Shown here piece by piece: positions 54,169 through 56,835 of a DNA stretch of 62,811 nt (positions are counted from its first letter, which is position 1; every line of letters starts with the position of its first letter). The DNA is from an uncultured Acidimicrobiales bacterium (lineage in GTDB: Bacteria > Actinomycetota > Acidimicrobiia > Acidimicrobiales > SHLQ01): the NCBI GenBank assembly GCA_937969345.1, contig CALBVK010000037.1, forward strand, positions 1 through 62,811. Direction: 5' to 3'. The translations under genes were made by a program, and so were the position numbers. Under the pieces are notes generated by a model. It had not been told where the DNA came from, made no database searches, and was given only the letters and a program-made list of their open reading frames with translations.

Positions 54169-56835
54169 ATGGTTGATGGACCAACCCAAATGGGTGACAA
54201 AAGCGTCGGCAACGAGTGGGTGGCCCGACCGATCGTCGCGGGGTTGACGAAGCTCATCATCGTCCTCGGCCCCATCATTGTGTCCGTCGGATTTGGCTTC
54301 TGGGCATCGCGGACATTCCCTCCACAACGGCTGCAACTCAACCCATGGATCTGGTGGCTTGGTCTCCTCGCTGTGGCTACGGTGCTGGTTCGCCTCCTCC
54401 ATCGGGCCTTTCACCACTTCGCGCCGCTCACCATGTTGTTCAGGCTCTCGCTGATCTTTCCCGATCAGACACCGACCAGATTTGGGGCCGCGCTTCGGGC
54501 GGGAACGATCACGTCCACAAAGAAGCGAATCGAGGCAATCCAACAAGGTGGACACGCGCTCGAGGGCGACGACTCCGTCTCCCTCCAGATGCTCGACCTG
54601 ATCACGATGCTGTCGCGCCACGACCGGATGACGCGCGGTCACGCCGAACGGGTGCGTAGCTACGCCGAATTGATCGGCGACGAGATGGGTATTGTTGGCC
54701 GCGACCTCGACCGTCTTCGATGGGCCGCGCTGCTGCACGATATGGGCAAGCTCGAGGTCCCGACCGAGATTTTGAACAAGGACGGCAAGCCGTCCGAGGC
54801 GGAGTGGGAGATTCTAAAGGGGCACCCGGCCGCCGCCGAAAAGCACCTCGCCCCGATCGCCGAGTGGCTCGGCGAATGGCGTCATGCCGCCGACGGCCAC
54901 CACGAAAAGTGGGATGGGTCGGGTTATCCACGCGGACTCGCTGGCCTCGACATTCCACTTGCGGCACGAATCGTTGCGGTTGCTGATGCCTACGACGTGA
55001 TGACGAGCACTCGTTCGTACAAGGTTCCAATTCGTGCAGAGGTCGCACGCCGAGAGATCGCAGACAACGCCGGTTCTCAATTCGATCCGGTCGTGGCACG
55101 AGCCTTCCTTCGTCTGAGCCTTGGTGATCTCCGTCGCGTAGGTGGCCCGATTGCTTGGTTTGCGAGCCTTCCTGCTGTCCGCCAGATTCCAATCGGAACG
55201 GCCGCCGCACCAATCTCGACAGCGATCACCGCGGCAGCGACCGCCATTGCGGTCGCTATTGGTGGCGTTCCTGAGACGCCCATCGTCGAGAACCCTCCGG
55301 CTATTGCGTTCGCTGATGAGTCTGCTGACGTGGCCGAACCAATTGTTTCCTCGACGGTCGCTCCTCCCGCGCCGGTATCGACATCAACAGCAGCCCCCAC
55401 ACCCATCAGAACCGCACCGACGGCTCCGACCTCAACAACCACAGCCCCAACGACAACGTCGACCACCCCCGCTCCAACGACCACAGCTGCTCCAACGACG
55501 ACGACTACGACCACTGCCGCTCCAACGACGACCACGACCACGACCACGACCACGACCACGACCACGGTGCCGGTCAACACCAGGCCCCGGTTCGACGATC
55601 AGACGCTGAGGCTGTCCGAAAACATGCCCGCTGGCGGCACCGGTCGGTACGTCGTCGCTACCGACGAGGGAACACTCGCCTTCTCGACGCTCACCGCCGG
55701 CACACCGTTCGCGCTTCGTTCGGACGGCGAAATTGTCATCGATGACCCGTCGCTACTGAACTTCGAGGCCCAGGCACTGTGGCAACTCGACGCGGTCGTC
55801 ACCGATGGGGTCTACGACGAGATGGCGACTATCTCGATCCTGGTGGAGGACGTGAACGAGGCGCCATTCGGATCCGCTCAGAGCTTTCAGGCATTCGAGG
55901 TCGACCCGACAGGGACAACCGTGGGATCATTTGCTGTCAGCGACCCCGAAGCGAACTCGATCATGGTCGCAATCGATGATGCCACGAACCCCGATATCGA
56001 TGGCGACGGTCAACGAGCCTACGCAGCCTCCATAACTGGCGATGTGGTGACGATATCGATCGATGATGCCGACGACGTCGACCACGGGGTGGCAGGCCAG
56101 GCACCAACGCTGGCGGTCCAGCTAACGGACGAGTTCGGAAGTTCATCGAGCGCAGCGGTCCAGATCAGCACCCAGAGCCGCTTTGGACTCTCGCCTCGAT
56201 TCGGCGAGATCATCATCTCCGAGGTCCGCTGGACGTCCCATCCACAATTCATTGAGTTGGTCAATGTTCATGACCAACCCGTCGACGTCTCCAATTGGAT
56301 CATTGCTGACTACGCCTACGGGATCGACCCCGCCGACACGAACAGCATCAATATCACTCCGATCCCGGCAAATCCTGCAGGGCTCGACCCTGGACAGCGC
56401 GTGCTCTTCTGGGTGGGGACGCAGCCCGACCCCGACAGCGCCGGCATCGAATTTGAAGCAGGCAACACAAACCTCGCGCTCGGGGCCTCCGACGACATAT
56501 GGGTCCTCGACGAAAACGGGCGAATCGTTGCATACATGGCGTGGGGAAGCGACACGATCCAAGATGACAACAACGCGATCGGCGACCGACCACCGATCGC
56601 AGCGTGGGGGTTATGGGATACCACGTTCGAATCGAGCCTCGGCCCGGGCCCCGGCGTCGCTGTTTCGGAATCGATCGCCGTTTCGATCGAGAGCGCCGCG
56701 GCCTCGCGAAATAGTGCGTGCTGGGAAGCAACCACGAGCGGGGATGCCGCGGCGCGTTGCATCGGCGCCAACCTCACCGTCAGCATCGATCCTGGCCCAA
56801 ATCGTGTTTCCAGCCCCGGACACCGGAATTACTAA
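54169..56835 (+). CDS. membrane HD-GYP phosphodiesterase fused, via a third TM and a Pro/Thr linker, to cadherin-like repeats and a lamin-tail domain
   Basis: Two N-terminal TMs. Intact HD-GYP (HAERVRSYAELIG, LLHDMGKLEVP, HHEKWDGSGYPRGL). TM-like IAWFASLPAV...ITAAATAIAVAIGGV. PT linker. Cadherin-type ending LVEDVNEAP. LTD IISEVRWTSHPQFIELVNVHDQPVDVSNWII. Confidence 0.8.
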   Translation: MVDGPTQMGDKSVGNEWVARPIVAGLTKLIIVLGPIIVSVGFGFWASRTFPPQRLQLNPWIWWLGLLAVATVLVRLLHRAFHHFAPLTMLFRLSLIFPDQTPTRFGAALRAGTITSTKKRIEAIQQGGHALEGDDSVSLQMLDLITMLSRHDRMTRGHAERVRSYAELIGDEMGIVGRDLDRLRWAALLHDMGKLEVPTEILNKDGKPSEAEWEILKGHPAAAEKHLAPIAEWLGEWRHAADGHHEKWDGSGYPRGLAGLDIPLAARIVAVADAYDVMTSTRSYKVPIRAEVARREIADNAGSQFDPVVARAFLRLSLGDLRRVGGPIAWFASLPAVRQIPIGTAAAPISTAITAAATAIAVAIGGVPETPIVENPPAIAFADESADVAEPIVSSTVAPPAPVSTSTAAPTPIRTAPTAPTSTTTAPTTTSTTPAPTTTAAPTTTTTTTAAPTTTTTTTTTTTTTTVPVNTRPRFDDQTLRLSENMPAGGTGRYVVATDEGTLAFSTLTAGTPFALRSDGEIVIDDPSLLNFEAQALWQLDAVVTDGVYDEMATISILVEDVNEAPFGSAQSFQAFEVDPTGTTVGSFAVSDPEANSIMVAIDDATNPDIDGDGQRAYAASITGDVVTISIDDADDVDHGVAGQAPTLAVQLTDEFGSSSSAAVQISTQSRFGLSPRFGEIIISEVRWTSHPQFIELVNVHDQPVDVSNWIIADYAYGIDPADTNSINITPIPANPAGLDPGQRVLFWVGTQPDPDSAGIEFEAGNTNLALGASDDIWVLDENGRIVAYMAWGSDTIQDDNNAIGDRPPIAAWGLWDTTFESSLGPGPGVAVSESIAVSIESAAASRNSACWEATTSGDAAARCIGANLTVSIDPGPNRVSSPGHRNY
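55528..55566 (+). repeat. (ACGACC)n hexanucleotide microsatellite encoding poly-Thr
   Basis: acgaccacgaccacgacc... encodes a run of about 13 Thr within the PT linker. Confidence 0.85.

Follow-up and report, generated by a model that had tools for sequence, protein, structure and literature searches.

Could a single bacterial polypeptide place a cyclic-dinucleotide phosphodiesterase inside the cell and adhesin-like modules outside it, and what might such a chain do? The question is raised by a gene in the window (the whole 62,811-nucleotide stretch of an uncultured Acidimicrobiales genome analysed here), in which one continuous ORF joins a three-TM HD-GYP core to a cadherin/LTD ectodomain. How bacterial touch sensing leads to a change in c-di-GMP is largely unresolved beyond a few proteobacterial models and essentially unknown in Actinomycetota. 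An active hydrolase and an adhesin-like arm within one polypeptide, if this reading is true, would offer a minimal reconstitutable system for contact or matrix sensing.

Gene integrity and layout

The domain order that the initial annotation had read from the translation, namely two N-terminal TM helices, HD-GYP, a third hydrophobic segment, a linker, two cadherin repeats and an LTD, was borne out along the ORF (Table 1). The same annotation had allowed for two ORFs misjoined in the Pro/Thr repeat region, and an assembly or gene-calling artefact fusing two genes across this repetitive DNA could draw on the tandem repeats located there and on the different linker lengths of near-identical assemblies. 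These length differences are, however, in-frame, the linker varying with respect to the ortholog P0001 (98% identity) only by indels of 6 and 8 aa. P0001, P0002 (86%) and P0003 (49%) are each encoded by one ORF, and the single-ORF architecture recurs in orthologs at 86%, 49-68% and lower identity whose linker sequences are quite different, on independent contigs from ENA, NCBI, JGI and Logan, as well as in hundreds of clusters. A fusion of two genes is contradicted by these independent assemblies and appears extremely improbable, so that on sequence comparison we consider the artefact reading of this ORF effectively refuted.

Table 1. Features of the HD-GYP gene and of the gene downstream, in window positions
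Feature	Residues	Position	Strand	Basis
Whole gene, 888 aa + stop codon		54169..56835	+	ORF list; ATG start
TM1	21-49	54229..54315	+	Hydropathy score 2.35; AF2 helix 21-49
TM2	59-82	54343..54414	+	Hydropathy score 1.77; AF2 helix 59-82
Family-specific cytoplasmic juxtamembrane motif	83-112	54415..54504	+	Conservation; no Pfam match
HD-GYP phosphodiesterase domain, cytoplasmic	145-316	54601..55116	+	Pfam, PDB sequence matches, fold, residues
Basic pre-TM3 segment	317-341	55117..55191	+	2.46 bits per column; net charge +2.0
TM3, in-to-out	342-366	55192..55266	+	Hydropathy, family position, charge flip
Low-complexity linker	367-470	55267..55578	+	Sequence; DNA tandem repeats at 55460-55566
Cadherin-fold repeat 1 (predicted)	about 471-568	55579..55872	+	Foldseek; homology to Pfam-positive repeats
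Cadherin-fold repeat 2 (predicted)	about 569-671	55873..56181	+	Foldseek two-domain alignments; conservation
LTD + C-terminal extension	672-888	56182..56832	+	Pfam LTD; conserved Cys pair
PPK2 polyphosphate kinase gene		56875..57690	+	Pfam PPK2 at 1e-76

The HD-GYP domain and its substrate

The HD-GYP domain had been described as intact from its HD, HHE and GYP motifs, and the full residue set is indeed present (H158, H190-D191-x-G-K194, H219, H244-H245-E, D249-G-S-G-Y-P254 and D273), with all metal ligands, K194 and GYP invariant across 89 relatives. Residues 145-309 match Pfam HD_5 above threshold (E=3.1e-34, 118.6 bits, cutoff 27.2), and the protein also matches Pfam HD at 1.3e-18 (67.8 bits, cutoff 22). 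AF2 modelled the domain with pLDDT 91-98, and Foldseek matched it to PA4781 (TM 0.74), DvhD (TM 0.78) and also PmGH. Judged from these residues and matches, the gene product is apparently a catalytically competent HD-GYP cyclic-dinucleotide phosphodiesterase. A degenerate receptor of the LapD/DvhD type was rejected, since the catalytic residues are invariant; in DvhD, SQ stands in place of HD and MN in place of HH, and the protein acts only as a receptor (PMC13090378).

The substrate is most likely c-di-GMP, which is plausibly made in the source organism since positions 1994-3679 of the window encode a GAF-GGDEF protein whose motif reads RxGGDEF. The best PDB sequence match, however, is the 3'3'-cGAMP-specific V-cGAP3 of V. 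cholerae (5z7c, 118.5 bits, E=2.5e-33), ahead of PA4781 (4r8z, 101.7 bits) and PmGH (4mcw, 94.4 bits), the three spanning E values of 1e-26 to 1e-33. With the anatomy unchanged, the enzyme might therefore act on 3'3'-cGAMP or on another cyclic or linear dinucleotide. We regard this as unlikely, given that the bit margin of V-cGAP3 over the c-di-GMP enzymes is small, that PA4781 is the best fold match, and that the invariant Lys194 is the counterpart of the c-di-GMP-binding Lys of PmGH (10.1101/2021.11.05.467447). The GGDEF cyclase of the window likewise speaks against it, and a general motif scan of the window, not aimed at CD-NTases, found no cGAMP synthase signature. The choice of substrate is independent of the readings of the whole protein discussed below and compatible with any of them.

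Membrane topology and ectodomain

The N-terminal helices, with hydropathy peaks at about 21-45 and 59-79 and pLDDT values of 83-97, are separated by an external loop of only about 9-12 residues, and there is therefore no N-terminal sensor domain; Pfam matched nothing in the N-terminal 151 aa. The juxtamembrane motif that follows (consensus RRLLPLxxLxxLSLVFPDxAPSRFxxALRxG) equals the catalytic domain in conservation, with 3.14 against 3.12 bits per column, and P86, F97, P98, P102 and R104 within it do not vary among 89 relatives. On the other flank of the enzyme, the segment preceding TM3 is also conserved (consensus LGxLRxxxGPxxWLxxLP). The TM helices themselves are poorly conserved by residue (1.8-2.0 bits).

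Only about 25 residues separate TM3 from the final helices of the HD-GYP domain. Its span is Ala/Thr/Ile-rich, without charges and moderately hydrophobic, the best 19-mer of the segment being 349-367 (Kyte-Doolittle 1.86), and on a crude Hessa-scale sum it gives +1.6 kcal/mol, the family median being +2.5. AF2 places a helix at 342-365 with a low pLDDT of about 50, and this value, together with the poor residue conservation of the TM helices, gives no sign of a tightly packed signalling bundle. A hydrophobic segment at most 80 aa after HD-GYP was found in 101 of 120 relatives, 87 of them also having two N-terminal TM helices, and was not found in the other 19 at the threshold used.

The linker comprises about 100 aa, acidic at first and then P/T/A-rich at about 396-466; the Thr run that had been put at about 13 residues exists, although it counts 14 (453-466). 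Linkers of the family have a median of 65% P+T+S+A. In 89 relatives the net charge changes from +2.0 in the 25 residues preceding TM3 to -5.8 past it, and the ectodomains of 95% of members have an even number of Cys. These signatures, with the invariant Cys pair of the LTD and the cadherin/Ig/LTD types of the tail domains, point to the topology first proposed, with HD-GYP inside and the C-terminal half outside, rather than to a cytoplasmic C-terminal half, which the initial annotation had kept as an alternative. Acidimicrobiia are regarded as monoderm, so that the stalk would cross the cell wall.

Of the cadherin repeat and second repeat that had been read from the translation, the fold was recovered, but not a Pfam match in the protein's own sequence: no cadherin-type family came up at E<=1 when the whole protein was searched, or at E<=10 when sub-regions were searched separately, and repeat 2 was matched by no Pfam family. 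The AF2 model of residues 470-888 has a pLDDT of 85.8, with about 88-97 over both repeats, and cadherins or protocadherins fill all of the top 50 places among its PDB fold matches in Foldseek. The best alignments are to the tandem EC domains of cadherin-23 EC1-2 (E about 1e-11, TM 0.53-0.64 normalised by target, about 205-224 aligned columns, 22-24% identity), and as the model's best matches are tandem EC domains, both repeats are predicted to be cadherin-fold. Repeat 1 aligns at 1e-9 to 1e-19 with the corresponding repeats of P0003, P0005 and P0006, which do pass the Pfam Cadherin threshold. Repeat 1 closes with DVNEAP (561-566), which, with SEN (483-485), TDEG (498-501) and NFE (531-533), provides candidate Ca2+-motif residues, picked by eye, where repeats 1 and 2 meet. 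Repeat 2 carries conserved NPDxDGD and DDADDVDHGVAGQ segments and is conserved immediately upstream of the LTD in P0003-P0007; on sequence reading, its junction with the LTD has no cadherin-type Ca2+ motif.

At the far end of the ectodomain is the LTD module, which runs to the last residue and closes with SSPGHRNY. The C-terminal lamin-tail domain of the initial annotation was confirmed by Pfam LTD (PF00932) at 679-793, with a marginal score of 36.2 bits for the whole protein, rising to 39.7 when the region is taken alone (cutoff 34.3); the orthologs score 39-54 bits. The stretch 795-888 belongs to the same conserved module, with a terminal S-S-x-G-x-x-N motif and a C851/C864 pair invariant in 17/17 sequences. 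This part of the AF2 model is beta-rich (pLDDT 59-93), the Foldseek ranking being dominated by the cadherin half, and a PDB sequence search with residues 670-888 gave no match. The Shewanella nuclease ExeM also carries an extracytoplasmic LTD on a membrane-associated hydrolase, and there the LTD is not needed for in vivo DNA degradation; a ligand is known for no bacterial LTD (PMC6085458). In ExeM, LTD and nuclease lie on the same membrane side, whereas here the hydrolase would be cytoplasmic and the LTD the extracellular tip.

Family, candidate mechanisms and neighbourhood

The family-specific N-terminal module was found in 301 (E<=1e-10) to 1134 (E<=1e-3) clusters at 50% identity, and in a scan of reference genomes all matches covering it came from Acidimicrobiia-type MAGs, to which class the family so far appears confined. 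Its sequences suggest a large receptor-like family in which a constant 3TM/HD-GYP core carries a swapped and expanded ectodomain, the present protein being a small member. Tails range from 158 to >2000 aa, and the modules in them are Big_9, Cadherin, He_PIG, VCBS, FG-GAP, pentapeptide, SGL or LTD; the simplest ectodomains have one Ig-like domain, and the largest combine about 10 cadherin repeats with 3-9 LTDs. Among 237 sampled relatives, 81 have 480-700 aa, and 44 have an LTD, which lies at the extreme C-terminus in 34; in many members the ectodomain is just one small Ig-like domain. One MAG has at least two paralogs, and at one locus paralogs adjoin. The initial annotation knew of no characterised example of this architecture and considered that it might prove common and already characterised; it is common, but our literature search found no publication on HD-GYP with a C-terminal cadherin/LTD arrangement. 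The family may provide a functional handle on the many 'eukaryote-like' cadherin-like and lamin-tail domains of uncultured Acidimicrobiia genomes.

HD-GYP proteins had been taken as normally controlled by intracellular sensors, which does not hold in general, since extracytoplasmic sensors occur in the known dCache-, CHASE2- and PBPb-HD-GYP proteins, and the HD-GYP census of Galperin and Chou lists N-terminal sensors only (10.1101/2021.11.05.467447). The present architecture fills a gap in that census, where HD-GYP is the C-terminal output; what is unusual here is that the ectodomain follows the enzyme in the chain and resembles an adhesin. Like our protein, the dCache, CHASE2 and PBPb types are membrane-bound, with a complete cytoplasmic HD-GYP and an extracytoplasmic module on the same chain, and they share the presumed logic of an outside signal tuning c-di-GMP hydrolysis. 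Their small-ligand sensor, however, is N-terminal, between two TM helices, and is connected through an S-helix or HAMP to a C-terminal HD-GYP, whereas here the enzyme comes first and an adhesin-type Ig-like ectodomain follows TM3 and the disordered linker. A one-component sensor HD-GYP of this type was rejected on account of the short TM1-TM2 loop and the position of the ectodomain. PgpH, the Listeria 7TM-HD c-di-AMP phosphodiesterase (PDB 4s1b), is likewise a membrane protein of the HD superfamily with an extracellular domain, and Foldseek gives a weak match to its HD fold (E about 1e-3, TM about 0.56 normalised by target). However, PgpH has its extracellular domain and 7TM region at the N-terminus, does not belong to the HD-GYP proteins and acts on c-di-AMP.

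In Actinobacteria, PknB-type Ser/Thr kinases and RskA/RsdA-type anti-sigma factors begin with an N-terminal cytoplasmic effector, pass the membrane in a TM segment and end in an extracellular binding domain, often over Pro-rich linkers, and work by ligand-driven dimerisation or localisation, not rigid allostery. The present protein has the same layout, but its output is a second-messenger hydrolase, it has an additional N-terminal TM hairpin and no sequence relationship is known.

We tentatively favour a receptor-type phosphodiesterase, doubly pinned to the membrane, with its ectodomain outside on a Pro/Thr stalk. The enzyme would be held at the inner membrane face on both ends, by the TM hairpin with its juxtamembrane motif and by TM3, beyond which the chain would leave the cell as a stalk of about 100 residues bearing two cadherin-fold repeats and the terminal LTD. 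The tip might engage a surface, a matrix polymer or another cell. Since the linker is long, flexible and unstructured, rigid piston- or scissor-like transmission would not work and the ectodomain would most likely work by clustering or tension. The signal could accordingly pass by lateral clustering or dimerisation of receptors, or by tension on TM3, and either route would alter phosphodiesterase activity and hence local or global c-di-GMP; we infer both the coupling of ectodomain to enzyme and its direction, and the direct tie between contact and c-di-GMP turnover put forward in the initial annotation has the same standing. A bolder version is possible but, in our view, somewhat unlikely: such proteins would be single-chain adhesion receptors in which contact of the cadherin/LTD ectodomain with another cell, a host surface or a matrix polymer, through clustering or mechanical TM3 load, switches the doubly tethered HD-GYP and yields a c-di-GMP signal without other proteins in between, the conserved LSLxFPDxAPSRF motif transducing, and Acidimicrobiia would have a diversified contact-sensing repertoire.

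The flexible linker between TM3 and the first folded domain, the poor residue conservation of the TM helices and the low confidence of TM3 packing in the AF2 model would also suit a tethered adhesin or localised sink without allostery, in which the ectodomain is a surface adhesin or an arm associated with the cell wall and HD-GYP acts as anchor and constitutive membrane phosphodiesterase regulated only through expression or localisation; the giant relatives with their many cadherin repeats and LTDs do resemble adhesins. We consider this rather unlikely, however, as the segments on either side of the enzyme are strongly conserved, which suggests that they do more than anchor. Moreover, the many members with one small Ig-like domain resemble sensors more than adhesins, and for mere tethering simpler anchors would be enough.

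Signalling might also run from inside to outside, c-di-GMP in the HD-GYP site altering oligomerisation, exposure or proteolytic release of the ectodomain. LapD and DvhD are, like the present protein, transmembrane, and tie the c-di-GMP state to surface adhesion (PMC3032553; PMC13090378). DvhD is an HD-GYP c-di-GMP switch acting across the membrane (PMC13090378), and both its fold match and the adhesin-like ectodomain found here agree with such a role. However, LapD and DvhD are catalytically dead and act on a separate protease and adhesin, whereas here the adhesin-like part belongs to the same polypeptide. DvhD lacks the metal ligands and does not hydrolyse c-di-GMP, while the invariance of every ligand here points to an enzyme with merely transient substrate occupancy. 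Neither a LapG-like protease nor another conserved partner gene was found nearby in the window or at related loci, and the flexible linker disfavours outward conformational transmission, so that inside-out control appears quite improbable. A LapD/DvhD-type partner set was also rejected, no protease or adhesin operon being present in the neighbourhood or at related loci.

The gene had been linked to a polysaccharide locus about 4 kb away. The distance is accurate, 4.3 kb separating the gene from the last polysaccharide gene (Wzz/P-loop protein, 48286-49827), but the link was not sustained: a hydrolase, an acyl-CoA dehydrogenase and a fatty-acid hydroxylase, all unrelated, lie in between, and the upstream neighbours differ at orthologous loci. 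The gene is flanked by the fatty-acid hydroxylase, the acyl-CoA dehydrogenase, PPK2, SGL and an RskA_C lipoprotein. Distant family members lack the adjacency to PPK2, but two orthologous loci, L001 and L003, retain it, as does a third, L004, with an insertion. PPK2 starts 39 nt downstream on the same strand, with no terminator-like site on the + strand in between, and from this arrangement it is a possible operon partner of the HD-GYP gene.

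Domain order, reading-frame integrity and membrane topology

The domain order proposed for the HD-GYP protein in the initial annotation (two N-terminal transmembrane helices, HD-GYP, a third hydrophobic segment, a Pro/Thr/Ala linker, two cadherin-type repeats and a lamin-tail domain, LTD) was confirmed by Pfam, motif reading, hydropathy and, for the repeats, fold comparison, so that its anatomy holds. Coordinates are collected in the table. A gap of 125 nt separates the gene from a fatty-acid-hydroxylase gene that runs divergently, and a scan for promoters and terminators gave no signal over shuffled expectation.

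Coordinates of the features discussed in the text
Feature	Position	Strand	Description
HD-GYP gene	54169..56835	+	888 codons, ATG start (ORF listing)
Juxtamembrane motif	residues 83-112, window 54415-54504	+	consensus RRLLPLxxLxxLSLVFPDxAPSRFxxALRxG
Linker	residues 367-470	+	acidic first, then Pro/Thr/Ala-rich; 14 consecutive Thr at 453-466
GAF-GGDEF protein, 561 aa	1994-3679	+	degenerate HD-GYP fragment, GAF, GGDEF with RIGGDEF motif
Wzz/P-loop protein	48286-49827		last polysaccharide-locus gene
PPK2 polyphosphate kinase gene	56875-57690	+	39 nt downstream of HD-GYP gene
Probable lipoprotein	58693-59814	-	signal peptide ending ...LVAAACGS; acidic tandem array, two RskA_C matches

The initial annotation had considered that two ORFs might have been joined in the repetitive linker by an assembly error. 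A two-gene fusion by mis-assembly in the Pro/Thr region was rejected, because orthologs on separate contigs, drawn from ENA, NCBI, JGI and Logan, keep one ORF and the indels are in-frame. The single frame is preserved in the 86% and 49% identical orthologs (P0002 and P0003) and in dozens more proteins despite unrelated linker sequences. The 98% identical ortholog P0001, from another assembly, differs over the shared region only in three substitutions and in lacking, in frame, 6 and 8 residues of the Pro/Thr tract, and its N-terminus is annotated seven residues shorter. At the DNA level, 55460-55566 consists of Thr/Pro-coding tandem repeats whose length departs from that in P0001 by these two in-frame indels (6 and 8 codons), a difference that could be either a true length polymorphism of the stalk or an assembly collapse.

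Membrane topology was derived from family statistics, namely hydropathy, charge, composition and Cys parity. In the Kyte-Doolittle profile, two strongly hydrophobic stretches stand near the N-terminus, at about 21-45 (TM1) and 59-79 (TM2), and an Ala/Thr/Ile-rich third segment, TM3, has its best window at 349-367. Of 120 relatives, 101 have a hydrophobic segment no more than 80 residues past the HD-GYP domain, and 87 of these 101 display the full two-TM plus one-TM pattern. Net charge in 89 aligned relatives is +2.0 in the 25 residues before TM3 against -5.8 in the stretch after it, the first 100 residues past TM3 contain a median of 65% Pro, Thr, Ser and Ala, the ectodomain carries an even number of Cys in 95% of members, and the domains downstream of TM3 are of extracytoplasmic type throughout. 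Together, these features strongly support a predicted arrangement with a cytoplasmic N-terminus, a hairpin, a cytoplasmic HD-GYP domain, TM3 crossing from inside to outside and an extracellular tail, as the initial annotation had proposed. TM3 itself is only moderately hydrophobic, its crude Hessa-scale sum of +1.6 kcal/mol being comparable to +1.5 for TM1 and +2.2 for TM2 on the same crude scale, with a family median of +2.5. The AF2 model of the core makes residues 342-365 a helix, but at a low pLDDT of about 50 and in no confident position, so the model offers no structural argument on a three-helix bundle.

A constant core with a variable ectodomain

The cadherin-type repeats of the initial annotation stood by fold and by ortholog homology, but not by direct Pfam match: Pfam detected no cadherin domain in the whole protein, nor in the repeats submitted singly at E<=10, and separate searches with each repeat, with the tail and with residues 1-151 returned zero informative matches. 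Repeat 1 (470-566, ending in DVNEAP) aligns at 1e-9 to 1e-19 with repeats of P0003 and of two further orthologs, P0005 and P0006, and these counterparts are Pfam Cadherin matches above threshold. The AF2 model of residues 470-888, built from a 17-sequence alignment, reached a mean pLDDT of 85.8 and a pTM of 0.72. Cadherin or protocadherin ectodomains made up its entire top 50 of PDB matches, and over two domains it aligned best to cadherin-23 EC1-2 (E about 1e-11, target-normalised TM 0.53-0.64, 22-24% identity over about 205-224 columns). Two independent lines, transitive homology and fold, thus back the cadherin call, and a cadherin fold is assigned to both repeats. Repeat 2 is a specialised form in which NPDxDGD and DDADDVDHGVAGQ are conserved, and in close orthologs it always stands directly before the LTD.

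The Pfam LTD match spans 679-793 (36.2 bits; cutoff, 34.3), and a single conserved module extends from this match through the final residue of the protein. Sixteen relatives, 86% to 29% identical over the module, align up to a terminal S-S-x-G-x-x-N motif, and a Cys pair, C851/C864 in the HD-GYP protein, is invariant in the aligned modules. Homolog searches missed even the 98% identical ortholog: a single match, irrelevant, came back for the C-terminal 418 aa, and nothing for the LTD region. We read these outcomes as a word-index limit and not as absence, and used local HMM searches of fetched proteins instead. By this means the module was detected in 44 of 237 fetched family members, ending 15 residues or fewer from the C-terminus in 34 of the 44, so that, where a member has an LTD, it usually forms the distal tip. 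Searched by sequence against the PDB, the LTD region had zero matches at E<=10. A defined ligand is not known for any bacterial LTD (PMC6085458).

The architecture proved not to be unique. A full-length search returned 1534 matches, and the best 120 of these all share the common core, followed by C-terminal tails that mix Big_9, Cadherin, Cadherin_4/5, He_PIG, VCBS, FG-GAP, pentapeptide repeats, SGL/NHL-type propellers and LTD, the last in 38 of the 120 by manual table count. The N-terminal 145 residues, free of HD-GYP sequence, provided a family-specific query against 1.84 billion 50%-identity representatives and retrieved 1134 proteins of up to 2667 aa at E<=1e-3, a number that falls to 301 at E<=1e-10 and to 13 at E<=1e-30; the N-terminal module has some 301-1134 cluster matches. 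In four long members examined under Pfam, cadherin stretches number as many as about 10, and 3-9 LTD stretches are present in three of these members.

Among species-representative genomes, N-terminal-module matches all come from Acidimicrobiales/Acidimicrobiia MAGs, or from MAGs labelled only Actinomycetota or Actinomycetes, and matches in other phyla cover the HD-GYP domain only. Within this set, the closest match belongs to an uncultured Acidimicrobiales MAG (L008; 93% over residues 1-402). The family thus combines a constant core with a variable ectodomain, and paralogs occur in some genomes, with at least two in one MAG (L012/L013) and near neighbours in the locus L007. In L007, paralogs of 1072 aa (6001-9219; Big_9/He_PIG/LTD) and 582 aa (9685-11433; Big_9) form a near-tandem pair with a NUDIX hydrolase gene after it, and the longer protein is labelled as from a 'Candidatus Porifer...' MAG. 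Other members carry pentapeptide repeats (P0080, P0099, P0119), or SGL/NHL-type beta-propellers plus PKD domains (P0016, P0028), instead of an Ig-like ectodomain, the tail being swapped as a module.

In the census of Galperin and Chou, HD-GYP is typically a C-terminal output domain after N-terminal REC, GAF, PAS, dCache, CHASE2 or PBPb modules, and its main text leaves cadherin, Actinobacteria and Acidimicrobiia all unmentioned (10.1101/2021.11.05.467447). Full-text literature searches combining HD-GYP with 'lamin tail' found nothing, those with 'cadherin' no described fusion, and those with 'Acidimicrobiia' only work on heliorhodopsin evolution with one HD-GYP mention, unrelated by its title and abstract; for c-di-GMP phosphodiesterases with C-terminal extracellular adhesin modules, the phrase 'C-terminal extracellular' was not found. 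In the source databases, family members carry generic names ('HD-GYP domain-containing protein', 'HD domain-containing phosphohydrolase', 'tandem-95 repeat protein'). The components, and sensor phosphodiesterases, are of known kinds; the family is common in sequence databases, though apparently unrecognised and uncharacterised as such.

Catalytic core and possible routes of signal transmission

Pfam HD_5, the HD-GYP model, matched residues 145-309 (E=3.1e-34; Pfam HD, 1.3e-18), and the motifs are complete (H158, H190-D191-x-G-K194, H219, H244-H245-E246, D249-G-S-G-Y-P254, D273). Across the 89 sequences of the core alignment, no variation occurs in K194, GYP or any metal ligand; these catalytic residues are thus under selection, which appears to maintain catalysis in the family. 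DvhD, in contrast, is an HD-GYP protein with degenerate ligands that functions purely as a c-di-GMP receptor; SQ replaces HD, MN replaces HH, and c-di-GMP hydrolysis is absent (PMC13090378). The domain matches PA4781 (TM 0.74), DvhD (0.78) and PmGH by fold, and its best solved relative by sequence is the 3'3'-cGAMP-specific V-cGAP3, with a narrow lead over PA4781 and PmGH, so that substrate preference cannot be read from sequence and a substrate other than c-di-GMP is a rival to be weighed.

The enzyme appears membrane-anchored at both ends, since TM2 lies about 60 residues ahead of the domain and TM3 about 25 beyond it, and its predicted extracellular arm would carry the LTD at the tip of an Ig-like shaft, which a flexible stalk joins to TM3. 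From this we infer a receptor-type phosphodiesterase, in which ectodomain binding would change hydrolysis, up or down, in a direction that is not predictable. In dCache/HAMP sensors the signal is transmitted by a piston or scissor movement, whereas here a disordered stalk of about 100 residues between TM3 and the first folded ectodomain would break such a path, so a mechanism of that style is implausible. A more plausible route would be clustering or dimerisation of the receptor by a multivalent ligand or homophilic contact, by analogy with actinobacterial PknB-type receptor kinases, which are clustered or dimerised by ligand; alternatively, tension on TM3 might act on the enzyme. The same arrangement could instead reflect a passive tether or local sink, or inside-out control of the adhesin by the HD-GYP domain, and the coupling of surface contact to c-di-GMP by the receptor-type phosphodiesterase is unproven.

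The 30-residue juxtamembrane segment after TM2 is conserved like the catalytic domain in the 89-sequence core alignment (3.14 vs 3.12 bits per column) and has no Pfam match. Within it, LSLxFPDxAPSRFxxALRxG constitutes a family signature and a candidate signal-transducing or regulatory element. The pre-TM3 segment LGxLRxxxGPxxWLxxLP displays intermediate conservation (2.46 bits), and the TM helices are poorly conserved (1.8-2.0 bits).

Genomic neighbourhood

Upstream of the HD-GYP gene lie the fatty-acid hydroxylase, acyl-CoA dehydrogenase and hydrolase genes, and beyond them the last gene of the polysaccharide locus. A functional tie to that locus was dropped, given the unrelated genes between and the missing adjacency in the orthologous loci L001 and L004, where glpX and other genes stand upstream. 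Since orthologous upstream genes differ, the polysaccharide wiring proposed in the initial annotation lacks comparative support; taken as a whole, its interpretation was partly supported, as anatomy and topology stood, the protein is not unique, and the polysaccharide tie was unsupported.

Downstream, no terminator-like site was found on the + strand between the HD-GYP gene and PPK2, and this adjacency is kept in the loci of the 86% and 49% orthologs (L001 and L003). The locus of family member P0009 (L004) has an inserted gene between the two; its 1719-aa product (8215-13374, Acidimicrobiales MAG GCA_020629635.1) has zero Pfam matches. PPK2 as a functional partner was set aside, as the entire downstream block is syntenic among the close orthologs and more distant members lack the pairing; as a candidate idea only, the kinase might serve in guanine-nucleotide recycling. 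In L006, an 846-kb contig, the distant member P0020 is followed directly by a gene (8767-9798) for a cell-wall hydrolase of the Amidase_3 type (N-acetylmuramoyl-L-alanine amidase).

Encoded on the window's left side, close to membrane and polysaccharide-type genes, the GAF-GGDEF protein has RRERWDGTGEPG where HHExxDGxGYP is expected, and its Pfam HD_5 match spans only part of the model. The GGDEF domain with its RIGGDEF motif makes c-di-GMP production by the organism likely, and this protein may be the c-di-GMP source for the region. In the probable lipoprotein, AMEDD/AMEDE recurs about 10 times ahead of the two RskA_C (anti-sigma-K C-terminal) matches.
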